Source: a virus (lineage: Duplodnaviria > Caudoviricetes). Taken from it: a DNA stretch of 64,000 nucleotides. The translations under genes were made by a program, and so were the position numbers. Of the stretch, positions 4,912-46,625 are shown piece by piece (the first letter of the stretch is position 1; each line of letters begins with the position of its first letter). Location: IMG/VR virus record IMGVR_UViG_3300038673_000510, positions 32,001 to 96,000 of that record; one strand, given 5' to 3'. Under the pieces are notes generated by a model. The model was not told the origin of the DNA. It worked only from the letters and a program-made list of their open reading frames with translations, and did not search any database.

Positions 4912-4936
4912 TCTAAAAACAATATAGAACGATAAA

Positions 4937-4961: not shown

Positions 4962-4984
4962 ATTTTATAATAGAGGTTACAAAT

Positions 4985-5200: not shown

Positions 5201-5233
5201 TTACCAATAGTCCTCTAAAATTTTTTAGTTTTT

Positions 5234-5265
5234 GAAAACTCCCACAATAAAATGTGGGAGTTTTC
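5234..5265 (+). terminator. intrinsic terminator-like hairpin
   Basis: gaaaactcccaca-ataaaa-tgtgggagttttc. Confidence 0.7.
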
Positions 5266-5300
5266 TTGTATTTAGACAATATAATATAAATAGAGGACTT

Positions 5301-5759: not shown

Positions 5760-5780
5760 AAAATAACAAAGGAAAACACA

Positions 5781-6449
5781 ATGAGAATTATTTCTAAATA
5801 TCGTGATTATTATGATACTATAATGTCTTTTGGAATTGATAATGAATGTGTTTATTTACGTAATCCAGAACCAATTTCGTTAAATAAAAATAACGATCCA
5901 TTTTCTTCGTATATACATCATAGAGATAAAAAAGATCACACTAAGGGTGATTTGTATGATATTGGTGTTTATACAAATTATAGTCAAAACCGTAAAGAAG
6001 AAACATTGATAATTGGCTTTTGTGGAAAAATATATCCTTGTTTTATTGACACTACTGCTCATTATGAACCAACCGAAGAACAAATTTATGATGCAAAAAA
6101 TAATCGTTGGGGTCTCAATCGTAATTATGTAGATTTTTTCAATAAAAATTGGGATGATTTTAATAAAATATTTACAGATTATATGGTTCCAATTTTTACT
6201 ATTCGTGGGCCTAATGGTTCAGATGGCTGGAAAACTCTAACATTAAACGATGATCTTAAACAATTTAATTTTGTTACACAGAAAGATCCTTATACTGCTT
6301 TTCAAGATATATATCAGTATCTTTCTGGTGTGCTTGGTATTAACAATAAGCCAATGATAAAAATATCAGATAAAGATATGGCCATTAAAAAAGGATTTTC
6401 ACATAAATATGCTTTTCGCAAAGAACCTACTAAGAGGAAAATTTCATGA
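5781..6449 (+). CDS. conserved phage hypothetical protein
   Basis: MRIISKYRDYYD...IGFCGKIYP...DPYTAFQDI, recognisable as a common phage family. Confidence 0.6.
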   Translation: MRIISKYRDYYDTIMSFGIDNECVYLRNPEPISLNKNNDPFSSYIHHRDKKDHTKGDLYDIGVYTNYSQNRKEETLIIGFCGKIYPCFIDTTAHYEPTEEQIYDAKNNRWGLNRNYVDFFNKNWDDFNKIFTDYMVPIFTIRGPNGSDGWKTLTLNDDLKQFNFVTQKDPYTAFQDIYQYLSGVLGINNKPMIKISDKDMAIKKGFSHKYAFRKEPTKRKIS

Positions 6450-15202: not shown

Positions 15203-16114
15203 ATGATTAAAGTAATTTTTGCGCGTGGGCTTATTGCGTCAGGAAAATCCACGTGGGCCAAAGAATTTGTAGCAAATAATCAGAATTATAAAAGAGTATC
15301 TCGTGATGATTTTCGTCATATGACCAACTCTTATATTTATACTGATGAAAATGAAAAAATGGTAACTAAGTTATGGGATGTTACTGTTGCCAGTCTTATT
15401 GCACAAGGATACAATCTTGTTATTGATGAGCAGAATCTTAATAGTAAGTATCTTGAAGATCATAAGAGTTTTATTAAAACTGTTTGTGACCATGAAAACA
15501 AGACTGTAGAATTTTTAGTTAAAGATTTTCCAATTACTCTCGGCGAAGCAATTACCAGAGATAAACAAAGAGATTTTTCAATTGGTGAAAAAATTATAAA
15601 AAAGACTTGGCATAAGTATGAACTTACTTTGCGTAAGATGCTTGAAGATTCACGCAAAACAAAAGTTTATCCTTTTGATCCTAATCTTCCATATTGTATA
15701 ATTTGCGATATTGATGGGACTCTTAGTCGTCCAAATGACCGAGGAATTTTTGATTATTCAAAAGTTGATAATGATTATGTTATAGAACAAGTTGCTTTTA
15801 TGATTAAGAAACTTAAAGAAAGTACAAATATGATTATTGTCATGATGTCTGGTCGTGAGGAACAAGCTCGTGAAAAAACTATTAAATGGTTTGAACAAGC
15901 TAAGATTCCTTATGACTTCTTTTACATGAGAAAAGACAAGGATTCTCGTGCTGATAATATTGTTAAACTTGAATTGTTTGATAATCATATTAGAAACAAA
16001 TTTAATCCTTTCTGTGTATTCGACGATAGAATCCAGGTTCTTAAAATGTGGCAAGATCTTGGAATTTTTACTTTTGATGTTCGTCAAGACGCAGAAGGAA
16101 AAAATATTTTTTAA
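15203..16114 (+). CDS. pseT: polynucleotide 5'-kinase/3'-phosphatase (T4 PseT-like)
   Basis: GLIASGKSTWA, SRDDFR kinase domain; HAD DIDGTL, SGR, FDDR phosphatase domain. Confidence 0.93.
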   Translation: MIKVIFARGLIASGKSTWAKEFVANNQNYKRVSRDDFRHMTNSYIYTDENEKMVTKLWDVTVASLIAQGYNLVIDEQNLNSKYLEDHKSFIKTVCDHENKTVEFLVKDFPITLGEAITRDKQRDFSIGEKIIKKTWHKYELTLRKMLEDSRKTKVYPFDPNLPYCIICDIDGTLSRPNDRGIFDYSKVDNDYVIEQVAFMIKKLKESTNMIIVMMSGREEQAREKTIKWFEQAKIPYDFFYMRKDKDSRADNIVKLELFDNHIRNKFNPFCVFDDRIQVLKMWQDLGIFTFDVRQDAEGKNIF

Positions 16115-20200: not shown

Positions 20201-20308
20201 ATGATAGATGAAATAATTAGCATTGAAGAAGTGGAATCAGGGGACACAATTGATATAGAAGTTTCGGGAGATCATTTGTTTTTTGCAAATGATATTTTAA
20301 CACATAAT
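20201..20308 (+). mobile_element. Split intein C-fragment (IntC)
   Basis: Blocks F/G DIEVSGDHLFFAN..THN followed by Ser+1. Confidence 0.92.
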
Positions 20309-20557
20309 TCGCAGTTAAGTCGTGGTAATCTTCTTGTAAGTATTGAGGATTTGACTGAAGGCTTTATGGCGGATAGTTGGAGAAAAGTAAGTATATCGGA
20401 CTTGATTGTTGGTATGGCTGCAACTCCTGAAGAACGAGCTGCAAATAGAATAAATTTTAAAACACTCAAATCTCGAAATGGAATTAAAGACGAAATTTTT
20501 CCATTGAAGATTGAATACGAAAAAATGACTATTTCAGATTTAGCTAAAAAAGGATAA
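20201..20557 (+). CDS. dnaB: Split intein C-part (36 aa) fused to C-terminal 82 aa of the gp41/DnaB helicase
   Basis: TIDIEVSGDHLFFANDILTHN|SQLSRG...MADSWRKVSISDLIVGM...LKSRNG; GGAG SD. Confidence 0.93.
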   Translation: MIDEIISIEEVESGDTIDIEVSGDHLFFANDILTHNSQLSRGNLLVSIEDLTEGFMADSWRKVSISDLIVGMAATPEERAANRINFKTLKSRNGIKDEIFPLKIEYEKMTISDLAKKG

Positions 20558-28077: not shown

Positions 28078-31056
28078 TTAATCATCCCTCCACGATCCTA
28101 TTATACTGTTTATATCAAGTCCTTCCATTGTACATCCCATTGCATCTCCAAGTTCAATCAATTCTTTAGTTTCGTCATCAATTTCAAAGTCATTAGCTTC
28201 CCAATATTTAATTGTCTTACTTTTTGTTTGTTGTTCTTCAAGATCATTCATAGATTGAACAACATCACCAAAAAGTAAATGAGAAGTTACCATTTTATCT
28301 GTTGCCGCCCAACCAATATTATTAAGAAAGCAATATTGAACTAATGTCATTACTAAGTCATCATGACCAGCAAGCGCTTCAAGTTTACCAGATTTTGAAT
28401 AGCCAAATCCACGAAGTTCATTTATCATACGAACGCTTCTTATTTTAACTTCTTCTTTAACAATCATAGTTTGCATAATAGCAATTCCATTCGCTCTATT
28501 TGTTGTACTCATAGGGAAACCGGGCGTTAATTCTTTTTTAGATTTCCTGTGCCAATATAAACCTTGATACATAGTTGTTGATGCAAAATATTCAGTTACT
28601 GGACCACCAAGACCAGTACTTTCTATAGATAACTTTGCCGTATTATAATAATTACAAATCAATTCTATGATTTGTTTAAATTTTTCTGTATCAACTTTCC
28701 CCCAATACTCGGCCACTTGTGTGCTTGTTTCTGGGTCAAATACAACTGCAGTACTAAAGTCATTTGCACGTCCAGTAGCAACGTCACAATTATGTGTCGG
28801 TATATAATTACAACAATATGTATGATCTTCTGTTTCAAAGTTATAAACTGTTCCAGTATATTGTTGTTTTGTAACTTCGCTAATTTTTAAATATATAAAT
28901 TTATTATCATCAGACAAATGACAGCATCCAATAGATTTACGAATTTTAGGATTAGGTTTAATAGTAATATCTATGTTTAATAAATTCATAAATTTAATAT
29001 TTTCATGAGTTTCTATATTTAGACAATATGTTTCCTTCTGATTTACTATTCTATCTCTGATTGTAACTTGTGAATCCGCCTTACGTAATAATTTTAAATT
29101 AGAGACAACTCCTAATGAAAATAAAATATCTTGTATATCTTGTAATAATTTTAAACTAATTGAAACAAAAGATGAACGAAAATACTTCTTTTTCGCATCT
29201 TTATCATAGTTATTCATTATTGACCCATCACCCAACAAATAACCCTTTACTAATTGAACTTTGTATTTATTAGGAAGAAACTTTACCCACTCTGGAATTT
29301 GTTTGTTGCCAGCCCCCTTACCAAACGTTGAAATTAAAAAATCTGTAAATTGTCTTGACGACCAATGAATTTGCATAGTATTTGTTTCGGCATTTTTAGT
29401 TGAATAAACCTTTCTATTATATTTGTTTAACAAGTTATATATTTTGTCTATTAAATATAATTCTGAAGTTAAATTATGTGATGTTGTAATTCGACAATTA
29501 TATTTTGCATGAAATGATGTATGTCCTTCCGCCAACCATAATCCAATATACCACCATATTTCTTCATCTAATATAATATTAGAATTTAAATTAAAATCTT
29601 TTCGTTTAGATTGATATTGTTCAAAATATTTTATCATATCTAATTCTGTTGTTTTTTCATTATTATATATGTTAGGATAACACAGCCAATCTCCTATATT
29701 AAGTTCTTGAATAGGGTAAAATTTAAAATCATGTTTCCATATTCTTGGATTATAATTTAATTTTCCGGGTCTAATTGTTTTACTTTTTGATGCAAAAACA
29801 GGATGTTCTTCTGTAAATGTTGTGGTGTTATATATATTTTCTACTCTCACAGTATAAATATTTTTATCTTTTACTTTATGATTTATTGTTTTTATTATTT
29901 TTGTTTCTTTTCCATCAATAGAATATAAAACGTCGTTTAATGTAATATCCTCAATTTTTTTTAATCCACTTGTTGTTAAAACTTTTTCACCTGTAGGTAA
30001 ACACACAACTACATATTGTTTCCCCGGCGCAGGTTCTTCCCATATCCAAAATCCCTTTATATAATTAAAGCGTTCATCAAAGTCATCTTTCATTTCCAGC
30101 ATTTTATCAAAATCCTTATAATATCCTTCTGCATCAACATCATCTGGATAAAGAAAATCACATCTAATTGGAGATACTGGTGTCATTTTTTCAAGAATAT
30201 AATTTGGTATAAGTGAGTTTTCCAAATCATAAACTTCTACACCTAAAATTTCTATTTTGTATATACGTTCGCCAAGAGTTTCCCTCATAGCTTTATGCCA
30301 TTCAGCATCTTGATATTGTTCAATATCTGATGTATCTACATCAATTAAGTGAAATTTACTTTCTTGTGGATTTTCTTGTACACCATGTAATAGAGTAAGA
30401 TAGTGATTATTAATTGGATTTTGTGGAAGAGTACTAATAATAAATAATTGTGATGGCATAGTTCTGTTTGTAAATGGCGTTCCTTGTCCTACAGCAAGAG
30501 TAGGAATTGCTGATGCCATTAAACCGCTCTGATTGTCCATCGCTGCAAACTCATCAAGTATTAAAAGTGAAATAGATCCACCTCGACCAGCGTCGCTTCC
30601 TCTTGGAATGGCGGTTACTTTACTGTTATTATGTTTAAAACTCATTGTTGTTTTTGCGAATTCATCTGTTTGTTGTTTGAGCCACAATGGAAGATGATCG
30701 TATATAAACTTTACACGACCAAGCAAATCGGTACTTTCTCTTTGGGTTAATGATACTATTACTACATTTTGTGCTTCAAAAAATAAAGCTCTATATAAAG
30801 CATAACATGCTGTTAACGTAGAGAATCCAGTCTGACGAGTTTTCTTTGATATTATTTGTTTTTTTGATATAAATTCTTTTGCGGCTTTTTTCTGCCATCG
30901 ATACATATTATCTGATAATGCAACTGCGCCTTTAGAGGGGTGAGATACTTTTACATAATTTTCACAAAAATATAAAAAGCCGGTTTTACCCTCGACATCA
31001 GTTAATTTTTTTAATTCGATTTTTATTTCGTCGATTGTTAATTGCGATTTGTTCAT
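28078..31056 (-). CDS. terL: terminase large subunit with intein
   Basis: YFCENYVKV.HP, KTRQTGFS (Walker A), LLILDEFA (Walker B), DVATGRANDFS, GHDDLVM. Confidence 0.95.
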   Translation of the reverse strand: MNKSQLTIDEIKIELKKLTDVEGKTGFLYFCENYVKVSHPSKGAVALSDNMYRWQKKAAKEFISKKQIISKKTRQTGFSTLTACYALYRALFFEAQNVVIVSLTQRESTDLLGRVKFIYDHLPLWLKQQTDEFAKTTMSFKHNNSKVTAIPRGSDAGRGGSISLLILDEFAAMDNQSGLMASAIPTLAVGQGTPFTNRTMPSQLFIISTLPQNPINNHYLTLLHGVQENPQESKFHLIDVDTSDIEQYQDAEWHKAMRETLGERIYKIEILGVEVYDLENSLIPNYILEKMTPVSPIRCDFLYPDDVDAEGYYKDFDKMLEMKDDFDERFNYIKGFWIWEEPAPGKQYVVVCLPTGEKVLTTSGLKKIEDITLNDVLYSIDGKETKIIKTINHKVKDKNIYTVRVENIYNTTTFTEEHPVFASKSKTIRPGKLNYNPRIWKHDFKFYPIQELNIGDWLCYPNIYNNEKTTELDMIKYFEQYQSKRKDFNLNSNIILDEEIWWYIGLWLAEGHTSFHAKYNCRITTSHNLTSELYLIDKIYNLLNKYNRKVYSTKNAETNTMQIHWSSRQFTDFLISTFGKGAGNKQIPEWVKFLPNKYKVQLVKGYLLGDGSIMNNYDKDAKKKYFRSSFVSISLKLLQDIQDILFSLGVVSNLKLLRKADSQVTIRDRIVNQKETYCLNIETHENIKFMNLLNIDITIKPNPKIRKSIGCCHLSDDNKFIYLKISEVTKQQYTGTVYNFETEDHTYCCNYIPTHNCDVATGRANDFSTAVVFDPETSTQVAEYWGKVDTEKFKQIIELICNYYNTAKLSIESTGLGGPVTEYFASTTMYQGLYWHRKSKKELTPGFPMSTTNRANGIAIMQTMIVKEEVKIRSVRMINELRGFGYSKSGKLEALAGHDDLVMTLVQYCFLNNIGWAATDKMVTSHLLFGDVVQSMNDLEEQQTKSKTIKYWEANDFEIDDETKELIELGDAMGCTMEGLDINSIIGSWRDD
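28789..30003 (-). mobile_element. intein (405 aa) with LAGLIDADG homing endonuclease in TerL
   Basis: YVVV|CLPTGEKV...TEEHP...IGLWLAEG...KGYLLGDG...VYNFETEDHTY..THN|CDVATG. Confidence 0.93.
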
Positions 31057-31161: not shown

Positions 31162-33285
31162 ATGGCAGATACATTAAACGGTAATGATTTTAGAGAATAT
31201 CGAGACCTCTTTGGAAGTCCCATTCAACAGCAAGCAACCGCTTCAGATGGAACAAAAGCAGAAATAGATATTCTACTTAAAAAAATTGATCGTAAGTTAA
31301 AACGTTTTACACAATCTGATAGTGAACTTATTGGTCAACCAGATTATACAATAAGTCCAAGAGAACTAATTCCTATATCTATTTTTAATAATGATGATGA
31401 TTTAAACGCATTAGGCGGTTCTTCGTCTAAAAAACTAATGAATGACCTGGCTAAAATAGAACAGGAAAAAGCATTCAGATTAACTCGTTATAAAAGACTT
31501 CATAAAACTATTGAATCACCTGAAGCAGAAGGTATTCTAATGGTTTATGCTGATGAAGCAACAACAGAAGATCAGCAAGGAAGTATAATTCATATTCTCC
31601 ATCCAGATAAAACAATTAAAGAAACCATTGAAGATTTATTTAGACGTTGTGATCTTGAGGATCGTTGCTGGTCTATGGTTTATAATATGTGTGGTTTTGG
31701 AGATGAGTTCTATGATGTTATTCCAGCTTTGTCAGCTGATAGAATTGCAAAAATAGAATGGATTCCAAGAGATCAAATTGAACGTGTCGAAATAAACAAT
31801 ATTCTTCAGGGCTTTAGAACTGTTGATAAAAATTTAGATAATCAAGAACAAAGCGCTCTTTATACTACTTATAAATATGTAAATACTGATCAAGACACAG
31901 AAGAAAATGATCCAGTTAAAAATGCTGAAGGATTAATACACCCATTTAGAATTTTACATTTTAGAATACCATCCGATAAATATAAACCATATGGAAAGTC
32001 TGTTCTTGATAGCATTATATCTCCAGTAGAACAATTAAATCTTATGATAAAAGCTATGTTAATTGCTCGTGTAAGTAGAGCACCAGAACGTAGAATATTT
32101 CATATTGATGTTGGCAATTTACAAGGAGAACCTGCTATTAAGTATGCTTATGATGCGGTAAATTTTCTTAAAAAGAAAAAACAACTAAGCGCAGTTGGAA
32201 ATAGCGGTGGAACTACGCCAGATATGGTTCGTGATAGTTTTGGGGCCACTGAAGATATAGTAATTCCTAAGCGTGCAGGAACAGAGGGAAATTCAATTGA
32301 TACACTTCCATCTGCAAACGGCTTAGATCAAATCGGTGACATTGAATTCTTAAATAATAGAATTTTTCCATCAACAGGAGTACCAAGAGAATATCTTTAT
32401 GATACACAATTTGCATTTGCAAATACCACTCTTAGTTCTAAATCTGTTATTTTCGCTAAACGTGTAAGACGTGTTCAGCGTTTCTTTTTAAGTCAACTAT
32501 ATAAGCTGGTTGCTATAGAATTAAAACTTCGTGGTTTTTCTAATGAACAAATAAACGATGTTACTCTTATGATGAATAATCCATCTAATATTGATGATAA
32601 AGAAAAAAATGAAGTTGACACGGGAATGTGGTCACTTATTAGTACCATAAAAGGAAGCAACACTGATGGTATTTTTTATCCAGATTACTTAATTTATAAA
32701 AATTATATGAAAATGGATGATGAAGAAATTGTAGAACTTCTTAAACTTGCGCAATTACAAGCCGCTGGAGAAAATATATTTAAGTTTCTTCCTGAAGAAG
32801 ATAGACCCGAAAGTGCAAAAGATCTTGGTAATAATCCTGGAACTAATGTAAATATGGGAGGGCCAGGTGGTGGTGGTGGCGGCGGAATTCCTATGGGAGG
32901 AGGAGCGCCATTAGGCGGTACCGAAAATCCAGAAGGCGGAGAAGGAACCGAAGGCGGAGAAGGAGAATTACCACCAGAGGCTAAAGGTGCTCTTGGTGAG
33001 CCAGAAGAATCAGTTGTTGATGATATTAATCCATTAAAAAATCAAGATTTATTTCTTGAGGCAATTGAGAATAAAGTAAAACTAATTAAAAAATTTCAAG
33101 AAGAACAAGCAAAAATTTTTGAAGAAGTTCAAAAGACCAGTGAAGCTCATATGTATAAGAAAAAAAGAACTATTCTGCATAATATGAATCTTTCTTATCT
33201 TGAAGAAACTGGTGAGCTTGATGGAATTGAAAATATTTTGGCTGTTAAAAACGATGCTTTTTTAGAAAGTGAAGAAGAAAAATAA
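31162..33285 (+). CDS. portal protein (T4 gp20-like)
   Basis: YADEAT, PYGKSVLD, ARVSRAPERRIFHIDVGNL, EDIVIP, IDTLP. Confidence 0.93.
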   Translation: MADTLNGNDFREYRDLFGSPIQQQATASDGTKAEIDILLKKIDRKLKRFTQSDSELIGQPDYTISPRELIPISIFNNDDDLNALGGSSSKKLMNDLAKIEQEKAFRLTRYKRLHKTIESPEAEGILMVYADEATTEDQQGSIIHILHPDKTIKETIEDLFRRCDLEDRCWSMVYNMCGFGDEFYDVIPALSADRIAKIEWIPRDQIERVEINNILQGFRTVDKNLDNQEQSALYTTYKYVNTDQDTEENDPVKNAEGLIHPFRILHFRIPSDKYKPYGKSVLDSIISPVEQLNLMIKAMLIARVSRAPERRIFHIDVGNLQGEPAIKYAYDAVNFLKKKKQLSAVGNSGGTTPDMVRDSFGATEDIVIPKRAGTEGNSIDTLPSANGLDQIGDIEFLNNRIFPSTGVPREYLYDTQFAFANTTLSSKSVIFAKRVRRVQRFFLSQLYKLVAIELKLRGFSNEQINDVTLMMNNPSNIDDKEKNEVDTGMWSLISTIKGSNTDGIFYPDYLIYKNYMKMDDEEIVELLKLAQLQAAGENIFKFLPEEDRPESAKDLGNNPGTNVNMGGPGGGGGGGIPMGGGAPLGGTENPEGGEGTEGGEGELPPEAKGALGEPEESVVDDINPLKNQDLFLEAIENKVKLIKKFQEEQAKIFEEVQKTSEAHMYKKKRTILHNMNLSYLEETGELDGIENILAVKNDAFLESEEEK

Positions 33286-35071: not shown

Positions 35072-35740
35072 ATGGAACAGTTTAAAACAATATATATATC
35101 AGAAGCTTTTGTACCTGACAAATTTGGGTTTACAGAAGAAATTATTGGAGAAGATGCTACCGGTCCTATTAAAGCTCTTATTCTTGAGGGAGAATTCCAG
35201 CGTGCTGAAGCACCTAATCGAAATAAAAGAGTTTATTCTGAAAGTCTTCTTTCACGTGAAACAAACAAACTACAGCAGTTTATTAAAGAGAGAAATGGAC
35301 TTTTAATGGGCATGGACCATCCACTTCCAGGTGATAATGAACAAGCTATGACGCTTATTCAAAGAATGGGTATGTCTGAAAGTTGTGGATTATGTAAACA
35401 TCTTGAAATGGCTAATAAAGTTGTTTATGGTAAAGCACAAATTCTTGAAGGCGACCATGGTCATGGTGATAAACTTGCTGCTATGATAAGAGCAAAATTT
35501 AAGCCTGGAGTAAGTTCTCGCGGTATTGGTGGTAAAGCTTCATATCATACTTCTGAAGGATATGTGTATGTTCCTGAAGATTATAATATGATTACATATG
35601 ACTTTGTATCTCAACCAAGTACATATAACGCTATTCTTTCACAAAGATTTAATGAAGAACTTCAGTATTTTGAAAATTCTTTAAAACAATACACAAGAAC
35701 TATGTGGTCTGTATTAACAGATATAAAAAGTAAATATTAA
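35072..35740 (+). CDS. prohead core protease (T4 gp21-like)
   Basis: EGEFQRAE.PNRNKRVYS, GMDHP, GVSSRGIG, YDFVSQPS. Confidence 0.93.
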   Translation: MEQFKTIYISEAFVPDKFGFTEEIIGEDATGPIKALILEGEFQRAEAPNRNKRVYSESLLSRETNKLQQFIKERNGLLMGMDHPLPGDNEQAMTLIQRMGMSESCGLCKHLEMANKVVYGKAQILEGDHGHGDKLAAMIRAKFKPGVSSRGIGGKASYHTSEGYVYVPEDYNMITYDFVSQPSTYNAILSQRFNEELQYFENSLKQYTRTMWSVLTDIKSKY

Positions 35741-37168: not shown

Positions 37169-38749
37169 ATGTATTATAATGAAGCTTATGAATTAAGAAA
37201 ACAAGAAGAAGATAAGCTCTTCAAAAAATGGGAAGAAGCTCTGAACATAGATGGTGGTGTAAGAGACGAACACATGGCTCGTACTACAGCTATATGTCTC
37301 GAAAACTATATGTCATATCTTCATGGAAACCCACATTTAGTGGCTGAAGATCAGATTCAGACAAACGCATTCACAGGAGTTAACCTTGCTCTATTAGGTC
37401 TTATTGCTCGTGTTATTCCTACTCTTGTTGGTGCTGAACTTGTAGGTATTCAAGCGCTTCCTACACCTAAGTCTCCTATCTTCACAATGAGATGGTATTA
37501 CTCAAATAACAAAGGTCAGACACGTAAAGGTGATGAACTTTGGAAATCTCCTACAGATTTCTCAAGATTCCCAGTAGGTCTTGATGCAAATTACTCTTCA
37601 CAGATTATCGTTGAAGACGTTGCTACTGGTGCAGCAGAACACTTACTTGAATTTGGTAACACTAATGATAACATTCGTGCGACTAAGCCTTTCATCTTTG
37701 CTGGTTCTATGTACATCACTGCTTTTAATGCAGAAACAAAAGATGTTGTTATCGAAGGTTATGTACCTGGTGCTTATATGACAGCTGGTACTTCAGTTGC
37801 TTTCTCAGTTGTTCGTGCAGTTGAAACTGGACATGACGCTCTTATTACAGGTCTTACATTCGCAAACACAGGTGGCGTTCTTGGAATTACTGGAACACGT
37901 GCTGCTTCTGTAACTATTGGCGGTTCAACAGTTGCTCTTAACTGGCGCCTAAAATATGAATACAAAGGTGAAGCTGATCCTAACGCTCCTGAACTTAACT
38001 TTGAAATCACAGATGAAACTGTTGAAGTTATCAGACGTCAGTTAAGAGGAAAATATACAATGGACGCAGCTTATGACCTACAGAAGTTACATGGTCTTAA
38101 TGTTGATGCTGAGCTTACTAACATGATGAAAATCGAGTTACAAGCTGAGATCAACCGCGAAATTGTTGCTGACCTTCGTGCTATGGCTGCAATCGTTAAA
38201 ACTCTTGACTTCAATACTGTTGGTGATGGTGCTACTGGTATAACAATCCGTGGAAACTACGATGATGCTCACAAGATTCTTCTTGATAGTATCAACACAA
38301 TGTCTGCTGAAGTATTCAACATTGGTCGTTTAGGAAAAGCTAACTTCGTACTTGGAAATCCAACTACTCTTGCTTTCCTTGATCGTGTACCTGGATTCGT
38401 TGGTGCTGGTGTAAATTACAACGGTAAAGAACTTGGTTATGCTGGTTCACTTGGTGGAAAAATGAAATTCTACATCGATCCTAACTATCCTAAGAATGAA
38501 CTTCTTATAGGTTACAAAGGACCAGGTGCTCTTGATACTGGATATATCCATGCTCCTTATCTTCCTATCATTGCTACTCCTACGATGATTAACCAGGAAA
38601 CTGGAGACCCATCGAAGATCTTCTACACAAGATATGGTAAAACATATAATATGTATGGACCTACAGGACCAAGTAATAAAATTTTGATGGGGGAATATCA
38701 ATATGCTCGTCTTATCCTCAAGAATTTCCCAACAAGTTTAACATTCTAA
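37169..38749 (+). CDS. major capsid protein (T4 gp23-like)
   Basis: ELVGIQALPTP, RRQLRGKYT..AAYDLQKLHGLN..AEL, AEINREI, GYIHAPY, TRYG; strong codon bias. Confidence 0.96.
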   Translation: MYYNEAYELRKQEEDKLFKKWEEALNIDGGVRDEHMARTTAICLENYMSYLHGNPHLVAEDQIQTNAFTGVNLALLGLIARVIPTLVGAELVGIQALPTPKSPIFTMRWYYSNNKGQTRKGDELWKSPTDFSRFPVGLDANYSSQIIVEDVATGAAEHLLEFGNTNDNIRATKPFIFAGSMYITAFNAETKDVVIEGYVPGAYMTAGTSVAFSVVRAVETGHDALITGLTFANTGGVLGITGTRAASVTIGGSTVALNWRLKYEYKGEADPNAPELNFEITDETVEVIRRQLRGKYTMDAAYDLQKLHGLNVDAELTNMMKIELQAEINREIVADLRAMAAIVKTLDFNTVGDGATGITIRGNYDDAHKILLDSINTMSAEVFNIGRLGKANFVLGNPTTLAFLDRVPGFVGAGVNYNGKELGYAGSLGGKMKFYIDPNYPKNELLIGYKGPGALDTGYIHAPYLPIIATPTMINQETGDPSKIFYTRYGKTYNMYGPTGPSNKILMGEYQYARLILKNFPTSLTF

Positions 38750-38775
38750 TAGAAGCTTAAAATAGAAATAATAAG

Positions 38776-38808
38776 AAATGGAACCAATTTTTTGGTTCCA
38801 TTTTTTTT
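38776..38808 (+). terminator. intrinsic terminator after MCP
   Basis: aaatggaaccaa-tttt-ttggttccattt followed by T run. Confidence 0.85.
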
Positions 38809-38843
38809 GCTTTTTTAGTATAATAAATTAAAGAGGCAAAAAA

Positions 38844-39455
38844 ATGGAATATATAGTATATAAAATAACAAATAAAGTAAACAATAAAATTTATATAGGG
38901 CTTACAAATAATTTTCAAAAAAGAAAACAAGGACACCTAAGTGATTGTTTTAATGAAAAATCTAAACGATACAATCATTTAATATATAGAGCAATAAGAA
39001 AGTATGGATTAGAAAATTTTCAGTGGGATATATTAAAAACTTATCCAGATAGAAAATCTATGGAACTTGGAGAAAAGTATTATATAGCTTATTATGAAAG
39101 TAACAATAAAAATAATGGATATAACTGTACTATAGGTGGTGACGGTGGACCAATTCGATTAGGTATGAAAACTTCCGAAGAAACTAAAAAGAAAATTAGT
39201 CTATCATGTAAAGGTAAAGTAATATCTGAAGAACAGAAGAAACAAATTTCTGAAACATTAAAAGGTAGAAAGCCATCAAATAATACTATTATAGCAAATA
39301 GTAGACCTATTAAAAATATAGTTACTGGTGAAATGTTTATATCAGTAAAAGAAGCTTATGAAAAAGACCAAGTTAGCAAAAGTACTATTTTTAGAATTTT
39401 AAATGGTAAACAAGATAAAGATTATAAGCACAATTATGTGTATCAATATATGTAG
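38844..39455 (+). CDS. free-standing GIY-YIG homing endonuclease (NUMOD-type tail)
   Basis: IVYKITNKVNNKIYIG, GYNCTIGG, SEETKKKIS. Confidence 0.9.
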   Translation: MEYIVYKITNKVNNKIYIGLTNNFQKRKQGHLSDCFNEKSKRYNHLIYRAIRKYGLENFQWDILKTYPDRKSMELGEKYYIAYYESNNKNNGYNCTIGGDGGPIRLGMKTSEETKKKISLSCKGKVISEEQKKQISETLKGRKPSNNTIIANSRPIKNIVTGEMFISVKEAYEKDQVSKSTIFRILNGKQDKDYKHNYVYQYM

Positions 39456-39481
39456 AAATTAACGTAGAATAAAATAAAAAG

Positions 39482-39511
39482 AAAAGGACCTAAAAAATTA
39501 GGTCCTTTTTT
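39482..39511 (+). terminator. intrinsic terminator
   Basis: aaaaggacctaa-aaaa-ttaggtcctttt followed by T run. Confidence 0.85.
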
Positions 39512-39564
39512 ATTTGTTCTCTGTAATATAATAGCATATATTATAGATGAGGATTTATTTGATT

Positions 39565-40242
39565 ATGTTTAAAACTTACCTTGAATATTTGACACGTAAA
39601 GAAAGAAGTATTGCTGCTAATAATGGACAGACCAACCTTACTCAAATAAATAAAGTGACCGCGAGAGAGGATGATAAGCTTCCAGAATGGTGGTATAGTA
39701 ATTTTTATACTACTCCCGAACATGTGACAACTAAAAAAGAATATATAGATTATTATTCAGATAAAATTAGTGAGGTTACTCCCAATACTGATTATAAAAA
39801 AATAAGAAAGAGAGTAATAGTCGTTCCACAGGGTAAAGCTTATTGTGGGGATTCAAATGAAGTAATACATAATCCTATAATTGGATATATGATGTGCCTT
39901 GGATTAATTCCTATGACTATTGATCTTTCAGATTATCAATGGACTTATGAGCCGGTTGAGGCTAAAAATCTTTTAGCACTTGAAATTGCAGCCTATGGGT
40001 CATATCAATCAGAAATATATTTTTCGGAAAGTTATAATCCTTATACTTTGAAAGATATTAAAAAAATTATTAATCGACACTATAATGAAGTTTTAAAAAA
40101 ATTATTTAATATCACTACAGATGATATTCAGTTTATGGATCACCATTTAGAAGAATTAGAAAATGATGATGAAGATGATCCAGCTTACGATGACGATGAC
40201 GATGTTTTTGCTTATTATGATAATCCATTTGAAGAGAGTTAA
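39565..40242 (+). CDS. NGQTNL paralog family, YLE-leader protein with acidic tail
   Basis: MFKTYLEYLTRKERSIAANNGQTNL; GAGGA SD supports start 39565. Confidence 0.7.
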   Translation: MFKTYLEYLTRKERSIAANNGQTNLTQINKVTAREDDKLPEWWYSNFYTTPEHVTTKKEYIDYYSDKISEVTPNTDYKKIRKRVIVVPQGKAYCGDSNEVIHNPIIGYMMCLGLIPMTIDLSDYQWTYEPVEAKNLLALEIAAYGSYQSEIYFSESYNPYTLKDIKKIINRHYNEVLKKLFNITTDDIQFMDHHLEELENDDEDDPAYDDDDDVFAYYDNPFEES

Positions 40243-40276
40243 ATTATGAAAAAAACATTAGATTTTTATTTAGAGA
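39978..40276 (+). repeat. Block A, copy 1 (copy 2 at 43311-43610)
   Basis: About 300 bp near-identical; one substitution and A7 vs A8 seen. Confidence 0.95.
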
Positions 40277-40641
40277 TGATATTTCAAAAAGATAATAAAG
40301 ATTTTACTAAAAATTTTAAGTATTCGGCAAAACTCGAGACAATAGAAAGACATTTATTTGGTGATTATCTTTATATATTGTCTGAAAAAGTTGAAAATAA
40401 AGTTCCATATAAATATAAATGGAAAAAAGCAAAATCAAGAAAAGATTCAGATAAATATAATCAGTATAGAATCATAGTTGACTCAGCAACTGGCGAACCT
40501 GTTGTAAGATACGAATGGGCTACTTCAATCTTTGAATCTGATATTCCTAAAGAACAATTTTTTAAAGAAATAAAAGATTTTGTACAAGAAGAAAAAATAA
40601 AATTAAAAAGGTTAATGGATACAATGTTTCCTAAATATTAA
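40246..40641 (+). CDS. YLE-leader hypothetical protein (copy 1)
   Basis: MKKTLDFYLE-MIFQKD... Confidence 0.7.
   Translation: MKKTLDFYLEMIFQKDNKDFTKNFKYSAKLETIERHLFGDYLYILSEKVENKVPYKYKWKKAKSRKDSDKYNQYRIIVDSATGEPVVRYEWATSIFESDIPKEQFFKEIKDFVQEEKIKLKRLMDTMFPKY
40267..40641 (+). repeat. Block B, copy 1 (copy 2 at 42937-43311)
   Basis: 375-bp direct repeat; translated products identical from YLE onward. Confidence 0.95.
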
Positions 40642-40642
40642 T

Positions 40643-41014
40643 ATGTTAAAAATATATTTAGAAAATATATCACAAGAACGTTGGCAGGAATATATAGAAA
40701 GAATACCGATGCTTAAAGCTGGTGTTGAGGTACTTCATAAACTTGAAAAATTTGGTGAAGCATATATAGTTGGTGGCGCAGTTCGTGATATAGTTTCAGG
40801 TACTAAAGAGCCACATGATATAGATATAGCAACTAATGTGCCAATGGAAGTAATTGCTAAAATTTTTGGTAATGATAAAATCAATGATATAGGTGCCTCA
40901 AAAGATTTTGGAATAATTACTTTACAGTATAAAGGCTTTAATTATGAAATAGCTCAATTTAGATCGGAATCTTATGTTGAACCAGATTATGTACAAAGAA
41001 TAATAGAGGAATAA
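40643..41014 (+). CDS. cca: CCA-adding tRNA nucleotidyltransferase, N-terminal fragment
   Basis: AYIVGGAVRD...HDIDIATN (motif A), KDFGII, YEIAQFRSE. Confidence 0.9.
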   Translation: MLKIYLENISQERWQEYIERIPMLKAGVEVLHKLEKFGEAYIVGGAVRDIVSGTKEPHDIDIATNVPMEVIAKIFGNDKINDIGASKDFGIITLQYKGFNYEIAQFRSESYVEPDYVQRIIEE

Positions 41015-41015
41015 A

Positions 41016-41768
41016 ATGTACGGATATGTTTATAAAACAACGAACTTGATAAATAATAAAATTTATATAGGACAAAAGGTTTCTTCGAAATTTTTGTTAT
41101 CATATTATGGTTCTGGTGTAATTTTGAAACGTGCACTTAAAAAATATGGAAAGGATAATTTTTTAATTGAAATGCTATGTGAATGTGATTCTCAAAATGA
41201 TTTAGATTCTAAGGAAATTTTATTTATTGATAAATATAAAAATGAACATAATGAACAATGTTATAATATTGCCTCCGGTTCTAAATTTGGTGGTAATCAA
41301 ATGAAATATGCTACTAACGAAAAAATTCAAGAAAAAAATCAAAAAATTAGTATTGCTAATAAAGGAAAAAAAGCTTGGAATAGGGGTTTAACCATTAATG
41401 ATCCAAGAGTTAAATTGTATGCCGATAAACATAAGGGTTTTACTTATTCAGAGGCATCTTTAGAAAAAATGTCTATAAGTGCAAAAATTAGAGCTAATAA
41501 ACCAGAAAATGTTAATAGGATGAAAAATAATAATCCGGCGCAAAATCCTATTATTGCAGAAAAAATTAGTAAATCATTACAAGGTAAAATGGTATTAGAT
41601 AAAAATCCTAACTGGAATACTTTAGATGAAAATAAAATTAAGGAAATGTATTTTGCTGGATATAAAATTAAAGATATAGCTAATTATTTTGAAGTTGGGA
41701 CTCAATCGATTACCAGAAGAATAAAAAAATTAAAATTAGCAAAAAGATTAAGGAGTTCTTTAATATGA
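41016..41768 (+). mobile_element. GIY-YIG (Seg-like) homing endonuclease inserted within cca
   Basis: GYVYKTTNLINNKIYIGQ, YYGSG, CYNIASG; C-terminal HTH-like segment. Confidence 0.92.
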
Positions 41769-42922
41769 AATTAGGCCCTATAGAAAAATTTAATCCTAAT
41801 AATCCAGAACATCTTGATCCCAAAAAATATAAAATAACTTATAAAAGTTCTGGTCGTAAACCAACAAGTGTTCAAATTGAAATGTCATTTAAAGAGGATG
41901 CTAAAAGAAGAGATTTCACTTTCAACGCTATGGCAATAGATAGTAAAGGAAATGTTATAGATTATTTTGATGGACAACAAGCTATTCAGAGTAAAATTCT
42001 TAAAACCGTTGGTGATCCAGAACAAAGGTTTACTGAAGATTATTTAAGAATGATGCGAGCAATTAGATTTGCAAGTAGACTTGGATTTAATATTGATCCT
42101 CAAACTGGTGAGGCTATTAAAAAGCATGCCACTAAAATTTCAGGAATATCATCAGAAAGAATCTTAAAAGAACTATTAAGTATGGCAGAACAGTCTGGAA
42201 GTAAATTTGCTGATGCTATTATTGGGTTAAATGATTTTGGATTACTTCAACATATTCTGCCAGAGATAGTTTCCATGGATGAATATGAGCATGATGAAGA
42301 AACTCACCCCGAAGGAAATGTATATCAACACACGCTTGCTGCATTAAGAGCAAACGGAATTGTTGATCCAATTATAAATCTTGCTATTTTATTACATGAT
42401 ATAGGGAAGACTACTACACGAACTTATAAAGATAATGGAAAGGTTCAATATCTTGGACATGCACAGGCGGGAATATCATTAATTGAAAAAATTGCAAATA
42501 GACTTAAGATGGACAATGATGCAAAAGACGCATTAATCTTTGCGGCCGAAAATCATATGAAAATGCACAATTTACTTAATATGAGCAATGCAAAGATATA
42601 CGCTTTAATTAAAAATAAGAATTGGAACGTATTGTATAATGTTGCTCTTGCGGACCAAAAAGCGCGGGGAAATCTCTTCCAAAAGGCCGATTGGGACAAG
42701 ACTGTAGAGCGAATTGAAGATGTAACAAATAAGTATGCTAATCAAGATTTTCAAAAAGCTATTAAGAAAGTTCTTAATGGTGAAATGGTTATGCAGTTAA
42801 AGGGATTAAAACCAGGTCCAGAAGTCGGTAAAATTATTAATCAAACTATGGATTGGATTTTAAATAAAAATATTGATATCAATGATATCGAAAAAATTAA
42901 GAGGTATATAATAAGCATATGA
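41765..42922 (+). CDS. cca: CCA-adding enzyme, C-terminal fragment with HD domain
   Basis: GRKP, EDAKRRDFTFNAMA, RFTEDYLRMMRAIRFASR, SERILKEL, HPEGNVYQHT, LLHDIGK, PGPEVG; AGGAG SD at 41751. Confidence 0.92.
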   Translation: MKLGPIEKFNPNNPEHLDPKKYKITYKSSGRKPTSVQIEMSFKEDAKRRDFTFNAMAIDSKGNVIDYFDGQQAIQSKILKTVGDPEQRFTEDYLRMMRAIRFASRLGFNIDPQTGEAIKKHATKISGISSERILKELLSMAEQSGSKFADAIIGLNDFGLLQHILPEIVSMDEYEHDEETHPEGNVYQHTLAALRANGIVDPIINLAILLHDIGKTTTRTYKDNGKVQYLGHAQAGISLIEKIANRLKMDNDAKDALIFAAENHMKMHNLLNMSNAKIYALIKNKNWNVLYNVALADQKARGNLFQKADWDKTVERIEDVTNKYANQDFQKAIKKVLNGEMVMQLKGLKPGPEVGKIINQTMDWILNKNIDINDIEKIKRYIISI

Positions 42923-43311
42923 CAACTTTAGAAATGTATTTAGAGATGATATTTCAAAAAGATAATAAAGATTTTACTAAAAATTTTAAGTATTCGGCAA
43001 AACTCGAGACAATAGAAAGACATTTATTTGGTGATTATCTTTATATATTGTCTGAAAAAGTTGAAAATAAAGTTCCATATAAATATAAATGGAAAAAAGC
43101 AAAATCAAGAAAAGATTCAGATAAATATAATCAGTATAGAATCATAGTTGACTCAGCAACTGGCGAACCTGTTGTAAGATACGAATGGGCTACTTCAATC
43201 TTTGAATCTGATATTCCTAAAGAACAATTTTTTAAAGAAATAAAAGATTTTGTACAAGAAGAAAAAATAAAATTAAAAAGGTTAATGGATACAATGTTTC
43301 CTAAATATTAA
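42919..43311 (+). CDS. YLE-leader hypothetical protein (copy 2, different leader)
   Basis: MTTLEMYLE-MIFQKD... Confidence 0.7.
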   Translation: MTTLEMYLEMIFQKDNKDFTKNFKYSAKLETIERHLFGDYLYILSEKVENKVPYKYKWKKAKSRKDSDKYNQYRIIVDSATGEPVVRYEWATSIFESDIPKEQFFKEIKDFVQEEKIKLKRLMDTMFPKY

Positions 43312-43575
43312 CTTGAAATTGCAGCCTATGGGTCATATCAATCAGAAATATATTTTTCGGAAAGTTATAATCCTTATACTTTGAAAGATATTAAAAAAAT
43401 TATTAATCGACACTATAATGAAGTTTTAAAAAAATTATTTAATATCACTACAGATGATATTCAGTTTATGGATCACCATTTAGAAGAATTAGAAAATGAT
43501 GATGAAGATGATCCAGCTTACGATGACGATGACGATGTTTTTGCTTATTATGATAATCCATTTGAAGAGAATTAA
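43311..43575 (+). pseudogene. duplicated 3' fragment of the 39565 gene
   Basis: Block A copy 2, begins mid-gene. Confidence 0.8.
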
Positions 43576-43578
43576 ATT

Positions 43579-44107
43579 ATGAAAAAAAACATTAGATTTT
43601 TATTTAGAGAGAGTACAAGATCAACAGATGATAAATGAAGGTTTTGTTGATAGATTAGGTGCTGGTGTTTTGACAGCATTAATCACACTTGGTAGTGTTG
43701 GTATTGGTGGCGGATTAGTTGTTGGTTTTAGTGCGTCACAAAAGAACGCTTTGTTAAATGGTGAGACAATAAATTTTGAACTTGACAAATCAACCTCACA
43801 TCTTGATTATACAAAAACAATGGCAAGACAGATGGCTTATCCAAATGGACACCCAATGAAAACTTTACCAATGAATCCAGCAACAGATTCTTCTCCGGAT
43901 GAAGTAATGTTTAAAATGAAAATTGATGATAATAAAGCGAATAGTGATTTTGCTTCAAATGGAGTTTATGTTGATATAAAGAATAAAATTATTTATGTTA
44001 GTAGAGATAGAGTAGAAAAACGTAGTCCATTTAAATTACATGGCGATGAAAAAGAAGCTAAACGATCAATTGAAAAACAACGTGGCAATATTGATAGTAT
44101 GAAGTAA
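43579..44107 (+). CDS. YLE-leader protein with hydrophobic segment; leader out of frame by one A
   Basis: With A7, ATG 43579 reads MKKTLDFYLERVQDQQ-MINEGFVD; the sequence has A8; downstream ATG 43628 is in frame. Confidence 0.6.
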
Positions 44108-44109
44108 TT

Positions 44110-44397
44110 ATGAAAAAAAGTTTACATGATTATATTGAAACACTTGATTCTCTTGAGAATGATGTTATTAGTATCAATTTATTTGATGATAAAATTATTC
44201 AAGCATTAAAAGATGCCAGAGATGGTGATATAATTTTTATGCCGGAATCTGATTATGGTTTTGGAGAAATATATAAAATTCACAATTGGTTAATTGTGTT
44301 TTTAATTCCTAATTTTGGCGGAATTCCAGAATTTCATAATGCCTATCGTTTATCTGATGTTGAAGATATGATTCAAGAATTAAGAAGTTTAACATAA
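44110..44397 (+). CDS. YIE-leader hypothetical protein
   Basis: MKKSLHDYIET. Confidence 0.65.
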   Translation: MKKSLHDYIETLDSLENDVISINLFDDKIIQALKDARDGDIIFMPESDYGFGEIYKIHNWLIVFLIPNFGGIPEFHNAYRLSDVEDMIQELRSLT

Positions 44398-44406
44398 TGG
44401 TATAAT

Positions 44407-44901
44407 ATGAGTTTAGCATTATATTTAGAAATTACTAACAATCATGATTTTGATCGCAATGCTTATTTGAAATGGAAAAGAAAAAATGTAACTTACCGTG
44501 GAATAAAATCTTTTGGTAAAGATAATGAAGTGTATGGTTCTTTTGGAAGAGGACTATACACTGTTCCATTATCAAATAAGTCTATGGCAAAACAATATGG
44601 AAAACTTTATTTCGTAGTTGGAGCTATACCAAAAAATCCCAAAATTGTACAGTCTATAAATGATGCTGAAATACTTTTACAAAAATTAATTATAGATTAT
44701 TGTAAAGGACAAAATCATACAAAGGATTATGATCCTTCTTTTTTTGAAAATCATACATCTATGGATAAAGAGCTTGTTAAACAAGGATATGATGGTTTTA
44801 TAATTAAAGGCAGAGAAATTGTTAATTATAAACCCAATAATATTCTTTACTTTCCAACGGAAGAAGAAGTAATACATCACTGGAAAAATATTGCGGAGTA
44901 A
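44407..44901 (+). CDS. ADP-ribosyltransferase-like (ART-PolyVal-type) protein with YLE leader
   Basis: TYRG, FGRGLYT, AKQYG, PKNP, GYDG, EIVNYKPNNI. Confidence 0.65.
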   Translation: MSLALYLEITNNHDFDRNAYLKWKRKNVTYRGIKSFGKDNEVYGSFGRGLYTVPLSNKSMAKQYGKLYFVVGAIPKNPKIVQSINDAEILLQKLIIDYCKGQNHTKDYDPSFFENHTSMDKELVKQGYDGFIIKGREIVNYKPNNILYFPTEEEVIHHWKNIAE

Positions 44902-44905
44902 TAAA

Positions 44906-45490
44906 ATGATATTTAGAGATTATCTTGAAATAATGACACGTCAAGAAATGCGACGTGCCGCTAACGCTGGTCAAACAAATCTTGAAAAAGTTGGTGAAGT
45001 ATTGTCACGTAGCGATAGTGGATTATTGCCAAGATGGTTTCTAATATTGTTAGAAGAACAACTCAATATGGAAAACATAAGATATAAATCAGATTTTATT
45101 GAAGTAATGAATGAAACAATATTTGATAATAAGATTAAACCATACCCACAAAACGCACCAGAAAGTATTAGATTTATAATAACAAAAAATGGAGAATGCT
45201 TCTGGTGTGTTGCTGATGATGCTATTCATGGATCCATTCTTGCTTATATGATGTGCAAAGGTAAACTTCAAATGTTTGAAGAATTATTAGATTATGGATC
45301 TTGGTCTGAAACAATTGCATCTACTGATTATTTTATAGCTTTTATATGGGATGCTGATGATAGTGAAACAAAATTAGCTGAAAGTTATGCTTATGAACTT
45401 GAAGAAATGGTTATGAGAAAATTATTTGTGCCACCATATAAAGATTATTTATTAAATATAACAGGGTCATTAGAAATAAGTCCAAGTTAA
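44906..45490 (+). CDS. NGQTNL paralog family, YLE-leader protein
   Basis: MIFRDYLEIMTRQEMRRAANAGQTNL. Confidence 0.7.
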   Translation: MIFRDYLEIMTRQEMRRAANAGQTNLEKVGEVLSRSDSGLLPRWFLILLEEQLNMENIRYKSDFIEVMNETIFDNKIKPYPQNAPESIRFIITKNGECFWCVADDAIHGSILAYMMCKGKLQMFEELLDYGSWSETIASTDYFIAFIWDADDSETKLAESYAYELEEMVMRKLFVPPYKDYLLNITGSLEISPS

Positions 45491-45501
45491 GAGAGAATAC
45501 A

Positions 45502-45999
45502 ATGAGAAATAATTTAGCGCTTTATTTAGAATACTTACAATACCCAGAACCAGTTGAATTAACTGATTTATATAATGAAGAAGATATTGTAAAGGGAAAA
45601 ACCAATAATGGAAAGGGATGGTTTTACGCTGGCAATGATGAACATAAAAGTGAATTCTTTATGCTTAAACCTGGAGAAAACCATTGGGATCCATCTGTAG
45701 CAAAAAAGATGCAAAGTGTTGGATGGATTGATAAACCTGATTCCAATACTATGGAAAAAATATTTGCTGAAAATAAAATTATAAGATTTATTATAAATAC
45801 TAATAATGAAAATGAACCAGTTACGGTTGAATCTGGTGGACAACTTGATAATTCAATTTATATTGGTATTATGAAATTAATGAAAAATAAAGTTGCTGGT
45901 CCTTTACAAAAAACAGCCAAAATAATTTGGGAATATGGAAAATCTGTTGGGCAAGCAATTAAAAAATCATTTTCTGCGCAGGAGTGGCAATTAGCATGA
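45502..45999 (+). CDS. YLE-leader hypothetical protein
   Basis: MRNNLALYLEY. Confidence 0.65.
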   Translation: MRNNLALYLEYLQYPEPVELTDLYNEEDIVKGKTNNGKGWFYAGNDEHKSEFFMLKPGENHWDPSVAKKMQSVGWIDKPDSNTMEKIFAENKIIRFIINTNNENEPVTVESGGQLDNSIYIGIMKLMKNKVAGPLQKTAKIIWEYGKSVGQAIKKSFSAQEWQLA

Positions 46000-46625
46000 T
46001 ATTTAAAGATTATTTAGAAATGATGACAAGAAGCGAAATGAGACAAGCTGCTCAAAATGGTCAAACAAATTTATTGCCTGGTCTTTCATCATTGAATAAA
46101 AAAGAAGTATTACTTCCCGAGTGGATGACAGATATGTTTGAAAATTGGGGAGCGGGAAATGTACATGGGATGAGGTATAAATCTGATGTAATTGATAGAT
46201 TTCAAAATGATGTTTTTAATGCCAAATTAAAACCTGTTCCATTTGATGTGCCAGAAAGTCTTACTAAAAGAATAAGAATTATTATTACTAAAAATGGCGA
46301 ATGTTTTTGGTGTCGAGGATATAATGGAATTCATGGAAGTATTCTTGTGTATATGATGTGTATCGGTAAACTCCCGATGAAGAAAAGTTTTATTGATTAT
46401 GATTATAAAGATGGATGGTGTTGGAATAATAATATAACTAAAACTTTTATAGCATTAGAAATGTTTTATGACCATAATAGAATAATTGTAAGAATGGCAG
46501 AAAGTTATCAAGAATTTTATGGAGCGCAGTTAAAACAATTATATCAAGATAAAACTTATGAAGCTTTAGTAATGAAGTTTCTTAATTATCCTATACAAGA
46601 TATAAAACTTAAATATCAATATTAA
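45996..46625 (+). CDS. NGQTNL paralog family, YLE-leader protein
   Basis: MIFKDYLEMMTRSEMRQAAQNGQTNL. Confidence 0.7.
   Translation: MIFKDYLEMMTRSEMRQAAQNGQTNLLPGLSSLNKKEVLLPEWMTDMFENWGAGNVHGMRYKSDVIDRFQNDVFNAKLKPVPFDVPESLTKRIRIIITKNGECFWCRGYNGIHGSILVYMMCIGKLPMKKSFIDYDYKDGWCWNNNITKTFIALEMFYDHNRIIVRMAESYQEFYGAQLKQLYQDKTYEALVMKFLNYPIQDIKLKYQY

Follow-up and report, generated by a model that had tools for sequence, protein, structure and literature searches.

In the "genes in pieces" arrangement nrdA-a/mobE/nrdA-b of phage Aeh1, activity requires the NrdA tails that came in with the mobE insertion (Crona et al. 2011, PMC3045599), and these tails are not needed for formation of the heterodimer (PMC3045599). 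Crona et al. expected such tails to be case-specific, and the T4 topoisomerase gp39/gp60 is likewise split, by mobA (PMC3045599). Here we analyze a tRNA nucleotidyltransferase gene (cca) that is interrupted by a GIY-YIG homing endonuclease gene. It lies in a 64,000-nucleotide (nt) window, bases 32001 to 96000 of the 117-kb IMG/VR virus record IMGVR_UViG_3300038673_000510, which has a G+C content of 30%, is rated 63% complete, and derives from a T4-like phage. The locus likely encodes a two-chain CCA enzyme, split by a mobile cassette whose tails would act as a clasp that rejoins the halves, and the module formed by these tails appears to be portable.

The closest known system to the split cca is nrdA/mobE of Aeh1. 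In both, a free-standing homing endonuclease gene cuts an enzyme gene inside the catalytic region, and the halves are translated separately and carry insertion-derived C- and N-terminal tails, with no RNA or protein splicing. They differ in that cca is a tRNA nucleotidyltransferase gene cut by a GIY-YIG endonuclease gene, whereas the endonuclease of Aeh1 is of the HNH type. They also differ in the tails, which in cca are one conserved module that dozens of lineages share, that is found at two sites and beside several endonuclease families, and that exists in fused form too. The role of the Aeh1 tails is experimental, whereas that of the cca tails is suggested by conservation and models. In some T4-related phages gp43 is split. 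Both gp39/gp60 and split gp43 resemble the cca locus as essential phage enzymes working as separate polypeptides beside a free-standing endonuclease gene, and we know of no shared portable tail module described for either. Split inteins, such as that of DnaB in this window, also have a gene in two pieces and complementary end peptides that unite them. The cca halves differ from these in having no splicing residues, in tails that stay in the product, and in a module of about 36 to 39 amino acids (aa) instead of at least 130 aa. In bacteria with pairs of CC-adding and A-adding enzymes (PMC2910056, PMC7014341), CCA synthesis is also distributed over two polypeptides and the flexible loop discriminates between them, but these are two complete paralogous enzymes, whereas the phage cca is one enzyme cut within the loop. 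We found no paper in the literature on a split phage cca. What is new here is that the tail module also occurs in the HD domain, where it is fused, split by an endonuclease gene, or split without one, which leads to three-piece enzymes.

The initial annotation of the locus, made from the sequence without database searches, had described motif A in a separate 123-aa open reading frame (ORF) followed directly by a GIY-YIG gene, and a C-half with its own AGGAG Shine-Dalgarno (SD) sequence and a start codon overlapping the endonuclease stop. We found the ORFs and signals exactly so (Table 1). The N-half matches positions 1 to 74 of PF01743 in Pfam (E of 6e-14) and contains GGAVRD and DIDIA of class II motif A. 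The C-half matches positions 69 to 125 of PF01743 as well as PF12627 and PF01966 (HD), and has the motif B (RRDFTFNA), motif D (EDYLR), and neck of class II enzymes. The endonuclease ORF, which begins 1 nt past the N-half stop and overlaps the C-half ATG (gap of -4 nt), thus stands between two halves that each have their own translation signals. Sites of the GGAG/AAGG type lie 7 to 12 nt ahead of the C-half ATG in every relative examined. No second cca was found in the genome besides the split one.

Residues 26 to 113 of the N-half align with residues 7 to 90 of the Bacillus enzyme 1MIV, and residues 30 to 151 of the C-half with 1MIV residues 92 to 210. Since these two ranges adjoin, the halves abut with nothing missing. 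The extras are about 12 residues at the end of the N-half (N-tail) and about 27 at the start of the C-half (C-head), the sizes first estimated from the letters. The break, between 1MIV residues 90 and 92, has the BxA motif (R-S-E) on one side and motif B (RRD) on the other and falls, as had been proposed, in the flexible-loop region of class II enzymes, which require this loop for the switch from C to A addition (PMC2910056). In the window the loop is not continuous: it is cut, 12 and 27 foreign residues are added, and its G-R-K-P part is retained. A Pfam match of DUF5643 over the C-head region (E of 0.004) is below the cutoff.

The same split is found in many relatives. The 120 nearest proteins include 96 intact enzymes of about 460 to 500 aa, up to 71% identical, and 22 C-halves of about 383 to 417 aa, all of which open with the same conserved C-head at the same loop position. 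The order N-half, endonuclease, C-half occurs in contexts L003 (a 264-kb contig), L005, L006, L011 to L015, and L023. In L024 the N-half is followed by a 295-aa Cys-rich ORF in place of the GIY-YIG gene, with a C-head match after it. The halves outlive the endonuclease gene: in L005 the GIY-YIG gene is truncated and both cca halves are whole, and in L006 and L007 both are intact despite an IS605-type element (Y1 TnpA and TnpB; L006:2362-3836 and L007:2168-3642) that lies inside the cassette, behind a truncated GIY-YIG gene. At this site, which we call site 1, the tails occur only in split alleles; the intact P0002 to P0005 and L008 are without them, the C-head is present in all 22 split ones, and both N-tail and C-head are conserved across split alleles. 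For six loci, nonsynonymous (pN) and synonymous (pS) differences in the C-head are 0.20 and 0.59, and pN is 0.24 for the catalytic core and 0.37 for the remainder of the C-half. Judged from these values, the tails are under purifying selection, the C-head being as constrained as the catalytic core. The phage collections yielded no near relative: megablast of positions 39500 to 44200 against INPHARED and single-protein scans of IMG/VR gave no match, and tblastn returned only relatives at 33% identity or less. A word-indexed search with C-half residues 1 to 40 was uninformative, with only 2 candidates.

The tail module is not confined to the catalytic loop. P0004, the enzyme of L008, has an intact loop and a 36-residue in-frame insert in its HD domain that consists of the N-tail followed by the C-head, and the module is also fused in frame at this HD site in P0087 and P0125. 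At the same site cca is split in L014, L015, L016, L018, and L026. When a C-head profile of 32 positions was searched against 1.84 billion representatives, 13 matches of three kinds were obtained, namely, site-1 C-halves, HD pieces of 226 to 262 aa that start with the module (P0124, P0126 to P0128, P0130, and P0131), and in-frame fused copies (P0125 and P0129). L014 and L015 have three-piece genes in the order N piece, GIY-YIG gene, 192-aa middle piece, second inserted gene, and HD piece. The second insert has DUF559/Vsr-like, NUMOD3, and Myb domain matches in L014 and a NUMOD3 match only in L015. L018 has a 128-aa remnant with a NUMOD3 motif at the HD site, and L016 and L026 are split there with both tails and no endonuclease gene. 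Middle pieces of 192 to 195 aa, in 8 clusters, have the C-head at the start and the N-tail motif at the end. A comparison of L008 with L014 at the HD site shows a clean insertion into the module, with the left flank identical up to the joint. The HD site thus has the module with or without an endonuclease gene, while intact alleles at site 1 are entirely without the module. From these sequences, the tails appear to be a portable module common to two break points and several endonuclease families.

The AlphaFold2 model of P0004, made from 19 sequences, has a mean predicted local distance difference test (pLDDT) score of 81.7. Its fused module comprises strands 269-273, 278-283, and 297-301 at pLDDT 84 to 90 and is confidently predicted to fold as a three-stranded β-meander, while the unoccupied flexible loop (residues 105 to 123) is below 50. 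The N-tail is homologous to strand 269-273, and the insertion point of the endonuclease genes maps to the turn between strands 1 and 2. A two-chain model of the window halves scored 0.75, against 0.01 for the best control; among solved complexes 58 of 80 attain this mark, and among mismatched pairs 2 of 110, counts that are only rough because the alignments were our own. Between runs, at least 94% of contacts agree, with partner pLDDT of at least 78. N-half residues 105 to 123 and C-half residues 1 to 9, 11, 16, and 20 to 30, which are the tails, belong to the confident interface together with the core sheet. The contacts with the least error are in the core, between C-half residues 56 to 60 and N-half residues 41 to 47.

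The cassette also bears signs of mobility. When the window is compared with L014 in 60-nt bins, identity is 98 to 100% over about 40940 to 41836 and falls gradually to 60 to 75% on both sides. The near-identical tract takes in 75 nt at the 3' end of the N-half, the endonuclease gene, and 70 nt at the start of the C-half, and the gradient looks like the trace of co-conversion during homing. L008 is closely related to L014 and has its loop intact; the two are 100% identical downstream of site 1 and only 61 to 70% identical upstream, so the left flank of L014 arrived with the cassette. L008 has a GIY-YIG gene, 31% identical to that of the window, immediately upstream of its intact cca. The situation of mobE is comparable: in most T-even phages it lies between genes, and in Aeh1 it lies within one (PMC3045599). 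A FastTree tree of the cca core, for which just the sequence following motif B was used, intersperses the 22 split alleles with intact ones, and its well-supported branches require a minimum of 12 changes. The identity gradient and the patchy distribution both point to horizontal spread, cleavage itself being a prediction.

The endonuclease of the window matches PHROG 314 "homing endonuclease" (E of 8e-30); its Pfam GIY-YIG and SegE matches are weak and below the cutoff. The GYVY and IYIG motifs are present, and in an alignment with relatives a Glu (E67) is invariant and an Asn (N84) nearly so, but the R-x3-H segment of related endonucleases is absent. It is 98% identical to the endonuclease of L014 and 25 to 36% identical to the same-site endonucleases of L003, L012, L013, L015, and L011. 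In L003, L012, and L013, the T4 late promoter motif TATAAATA stands in the gap that follows the stop of the N-half and precedes the endonuclease gene; in the window it is not enriched and does not occur ahead of the endonuclease gene. A second free-standing endonuclease gene, of the GIY-YIG/NUMOD3 type, is located at 38844-39455 between the capsid gene and an array of leader-bearing ORFs described below, and is flanked by hairpins at 38766-38813 and 39473-39518.

The cassette consists of 12 codons and a stop, the free-standing GIY-YIG homing endonuclease gene, an SD sequence, a start codon, and 27 codons. Most likely, each cca piece is made by its own translation, and together they form one nucleotidyltransferase whose active site is composite, motif A coming from the N-half and motifs B to D from the C-half. 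The tails would most likely pair as an intermolecular three-stranded β-meander, the clasp, in which the N-tail provides strand 1 and the C-head provides strand 2, the loop, and strand 3. Homing, with the flanks co-converted, would carry the cassette from one cca allele to another, and the HD-domain copy of the module would serve as a landing pad for other endonuclease families, giving three-piece enzymes. The initial annotation had already suggested a two-chain enzyme zipped by extra tails, and had named as checks a joint structure prediction and a selection test on the halves, with decay in relatives as a contrary sign. The recurrence in 22 of 120 relatives, selection on the tails, the survival of the halves beyond decay of the endonuclease gene, and the two-chain model all speak for it: the joint model passes with the tails in the interface, pN is well below pS, and the split relatives show conserved tails, not decay. 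The tails it had described as extras are real, but it had missed the portable module, the second break in the HD domain, and the other endonuclease families.

Several points weigh against this reading. The case for a two-chain enzyme is built from sequences and models, and from these we infer that the enzyme is active, that it needs its tails, and that the endonuclease cuts. The pass of the two-chain model indicates likeness and not binding, since the two halves look like an enzyme already solved as a single chain. The β-meander at site 1 is deduced by homology to site 2, because among the relatives we found none with an in-frame fusion of the module at site 1. With its weak Pfam GIY-YIG scores and missing R-x3-H segment, the window endonuclease is of uncertain activity. 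Furthermore, a 39-residue insert and a chain break could alter or abolish A-addition, since the flexible loop is needed for it and is sensitive to replacement (PMC2910056).

The last point leads to an alternative in which the two-chain enzyme has a changed specificity, being CC-adding or otherwise restricted, with the host enzyme supplying the terminal A. Mutation or replacement of the loop can restrict class II enzymes to CC-addition (PMC2910056), and the split lineages L003, L013, P0006, and P0008 have G-K-G-A in place of the G-R-R-P that otherwise follows the C-head. The window, however, retains G-R-K-P right after its C-head along with an intact motif D (EDYLR), the split form is maintained in many phage lineages, and 17 of 17 tRNA genes of the phage are without an encoded CCA, so that we consider such a restriction unlikely. 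It is also improbable that the tails are neutral insertion scars and that the native β-sheet of the head domain alone reassembles the halves. This would agree with the least-error model contacts, which lie in the core and not in the tails, and with the NrdA-a/NrdA-b heterodimers of Aeh1, which form without tails, but it would not account for a C-head that matches the catalytic core in conservation, is kept even in alleles with a decayed endonuclease gene or none, is reused at a second site, and is modeled to fold confidently when fused.

Decay of a gene broken by a selfish insertion has very little in its favor: the catalytic domain is physically interrupted and the surrounding region is rich in mobile elements and repeats, but both halves are full-length with every motif present, the same split is retained at 42 to 79% identity across many lineages with pN well below pS, and the SD and ATG of the C-half are conserved. 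Restoration of a single chain by RNA splicing, protein splicing, or translational bypass can be dismissed almost entirely, although the same phage uses inteins elsewhere (in terminase and in the split-intein DnaB), because no Rfam intron was found, the endonuclease ORF occupies the entire interval, the junctions have no Cys, Ser, or Thr and no His-Asn, fused alleles have the tails as part of their reading frame, and the frames of the halves differ in relatives (e.g., starts at 2796 and 4001 in L003). In detail, an Rfam scan of 40000 to 43500 at E up to 10 gave no intron family and only two chance snoRNA matches. With gaps of 1 nt and -4 nt, no noncoding DNA is left around the endonuclease ORF, and a structured ribozyme core of a group I or group II intron flanking it was not seen. 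The junction residues are Y|V and K|S, no Hint or Intein match was obtained in the Pfam scan of the locus, and the endonuclease is a separate ORF in another frame. The first inspection had likewise noted no spacer for an intron core and no intein ends. Intron, intein, bypass, and pseudogene readings were therefore all rejected on anatomy, the Rfam null result, and conservation.

Inteins and a possible intron were encountered elsewhere. The large terminase gene (28078-31056, minus strand) has an intein with a LAGLIDADG endonuclease domain. A DnaB-like helicase ORF at 2205-3539 terminates in an N-terminal intein fragment, and an ORF at 20201-20557, 16.7 kb downstream, opens with a C-terminal intein fragment (T-H-N end, then S); together they are probably a split intein giving a trans-spliced helicase. 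In L016, RtcB (4659-6189) has an interruption of about 240 nt that falls precisely where the G-G-G and the N-H of a conserved motif would join. It gave no match in Rfam and is possibly an unclassified intron. Near split cca loci, other genes may be split as well: Thg1 appears as two adjacent ORFs of 114 and 89 aa (L012:4940-5498), and in L008 (126-894) and L014 (679-1447) AdoMet decarboxylase appears as two adjacent ORFs of 133 and 120 aa. The N-half of L011 (1271-2680) is fused to a 344-aa N-terminal extension of no known family, and the split cca of L011 sits between the portal and prohead protease genes.

Table 1. Features of the split cca locus and its surroundings (window coordinates)
Feature	Position	Strand	Description
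Rnl1-type RNA ligase and Pnkp (kinase + phosphatase)	13624-14673 and 15203-16114		
Portal	31162-33285		
Prohead protease S77	35072-35740		
gp23-type capsid protein	37169-38749		TATAAATA 29 nt upstream
Left flanking direct repeats	39978-40641	+	3' end of ORF 39547-40242, leader, 131-aa ORF
cca-N	40643-41014	+	123 aa; N-terminal piece of class II tRNA nucleotidyltransferase; motif A and BxA motif
Y-L-E leader of cca-N	40643-40663	+	First 7 codons; candidate capsid-targeting/propeptide sequence
Mobile cassette	40940-41836	+	Tails, endonuclease gene, and short exon flanks; delimited by near-identity to L014
N-tail	40976-41011	+	12 extra codons closing the N-half; predicted strand 1 of clasp module; not in intact alleles, conserved in split ones
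GIY-YIG endonuclease gene	41016-41768	+	Free-standing, Seg-like, 250 aa; C-terminal helix-turn-helix region
SD sequence (AGGAG) for C-half	41751-41755	+	Within 3' end of endonuclease gene, 9 nt before ATG; read from sequence
cca-C	41765-42922	+	385 aa; motifs B, C, and D, RNA-binding neck/body, HD domain, C-terminal domain
C-head	41765-41845	+	27 extra codons opening the C-half; predicted strand 2, conserved P-N-N-P-E-H loop, and strand 3 of clasp module
Second insertion site	42314-42319	+	HD domain, between HPEG and NV..H; unoccupied in window, sequence reads straight through
Right flanking repeats	42919-43610	+	Order B'-A': 130-aa ORF, then 3' end of 231-aa ORF and leader

Upstream of the window, 17 tRNA genes and a transfer-messenger RNA (tmRNA) gene are found at G000:C1:7381-25926. 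None of the 17 tRNA genes is followed by an encoded CCA, so CCA addition is needed during infection. The RNA ligase, Pnkp, and cca make up a T4-style tRNA healing-and-sealing set.

The N-half begins with a short Y-L-E leader that is shared with its neighbors. The pattern [YF][LI]E within the first 16 residues is found in 21 of the 218 ORFs of the genome, and 9 to 10 of these are contiguous at 39547-46625, just after gp23. This array consists of small, otherwise unrelated ORFs, including cca-N, that start with M-x(1-8)-Y-L-E; no PHROG or Pfam family was found for the leader-bearing neighbor ORFs. The leader is retained in the closest intact cca relatives. A short leader on unrelated proteins near head genes is a likeness to the internal proteins of T4, which have only the capsid-targeting sequence in common (PMC3012670). 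The array can be regarded as a candidate set of head-packaged (injected) proteins. That the enzyme itself is packaged in the head, the C-half through binding the N-half, is a hypothesis to which we would give somewhat less than even chances.

Nested direct repeats with 100% identical bodies bracket the cca locus in the arrangement A-B-[cca]-B'-A'. The body of the 131-aa ORF (about 40265-40641) recurs at about 42935-43311, and the last 265 nt of ORF 39547-40242 with the next leader recur at 43311-43610, again 100% identical in both cases. The joints of the repeats fall within Y-L-E leader codons, and the arrangement suggests either recombination between leaders or an assembly problem. At 43579-43630 there is a run of 8 A, against 7 in the copy at 40246, and the leader is out of frame with ORF 43628-44107; with 7 A it would join this ORF in frame. 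The extra A reflects either a sequencing error in the homopolymer or a true frameshift.

As to how the cassette arose, the module may be an older resident of the HD domain, and endonuclease genes would have come to land in the first turn of the module. One of them could then have moved to the catalytic loop with both module halves, as a self-sufficient cassette. We infer this order, HD domain first and catalytic loop later. In its most extended form, which we put forward only tentatively, the bipartite 36- to 39-residue β-meander would be a portable "split-and-clasp" adaptor that lets several homing endonuclease families inhabit coding sequence without splicing. Starting in the HD domain, it would have reached the catalytic loop along with an endonuclease gene and would now support two- and three-piece enzymes in many phages, the leader of the N-half carrying the assembled enzyme into the capsid for injection as part of a tRNA-repair kit.

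Until now, Aeh1 NrdA has been the sole experimental case of insert-borne peptides rescuing a gene cut by a free-standing endonuclease. The cca case widens what can be tested, with dozens of lineages, two positions, at least three kinds of inserted gene, and a fused form predicted to fold confidently. Because the cut falls exactly in the switching loop, the split enzyme is also a natural experiment on the C-to-A switch. If the proposed mechanism is true, the clasp would be a natural, transferable protein-fragment complementation tag, and selfish nucleases would have, besides introns and inteins, a third route to become harmless inside genes.

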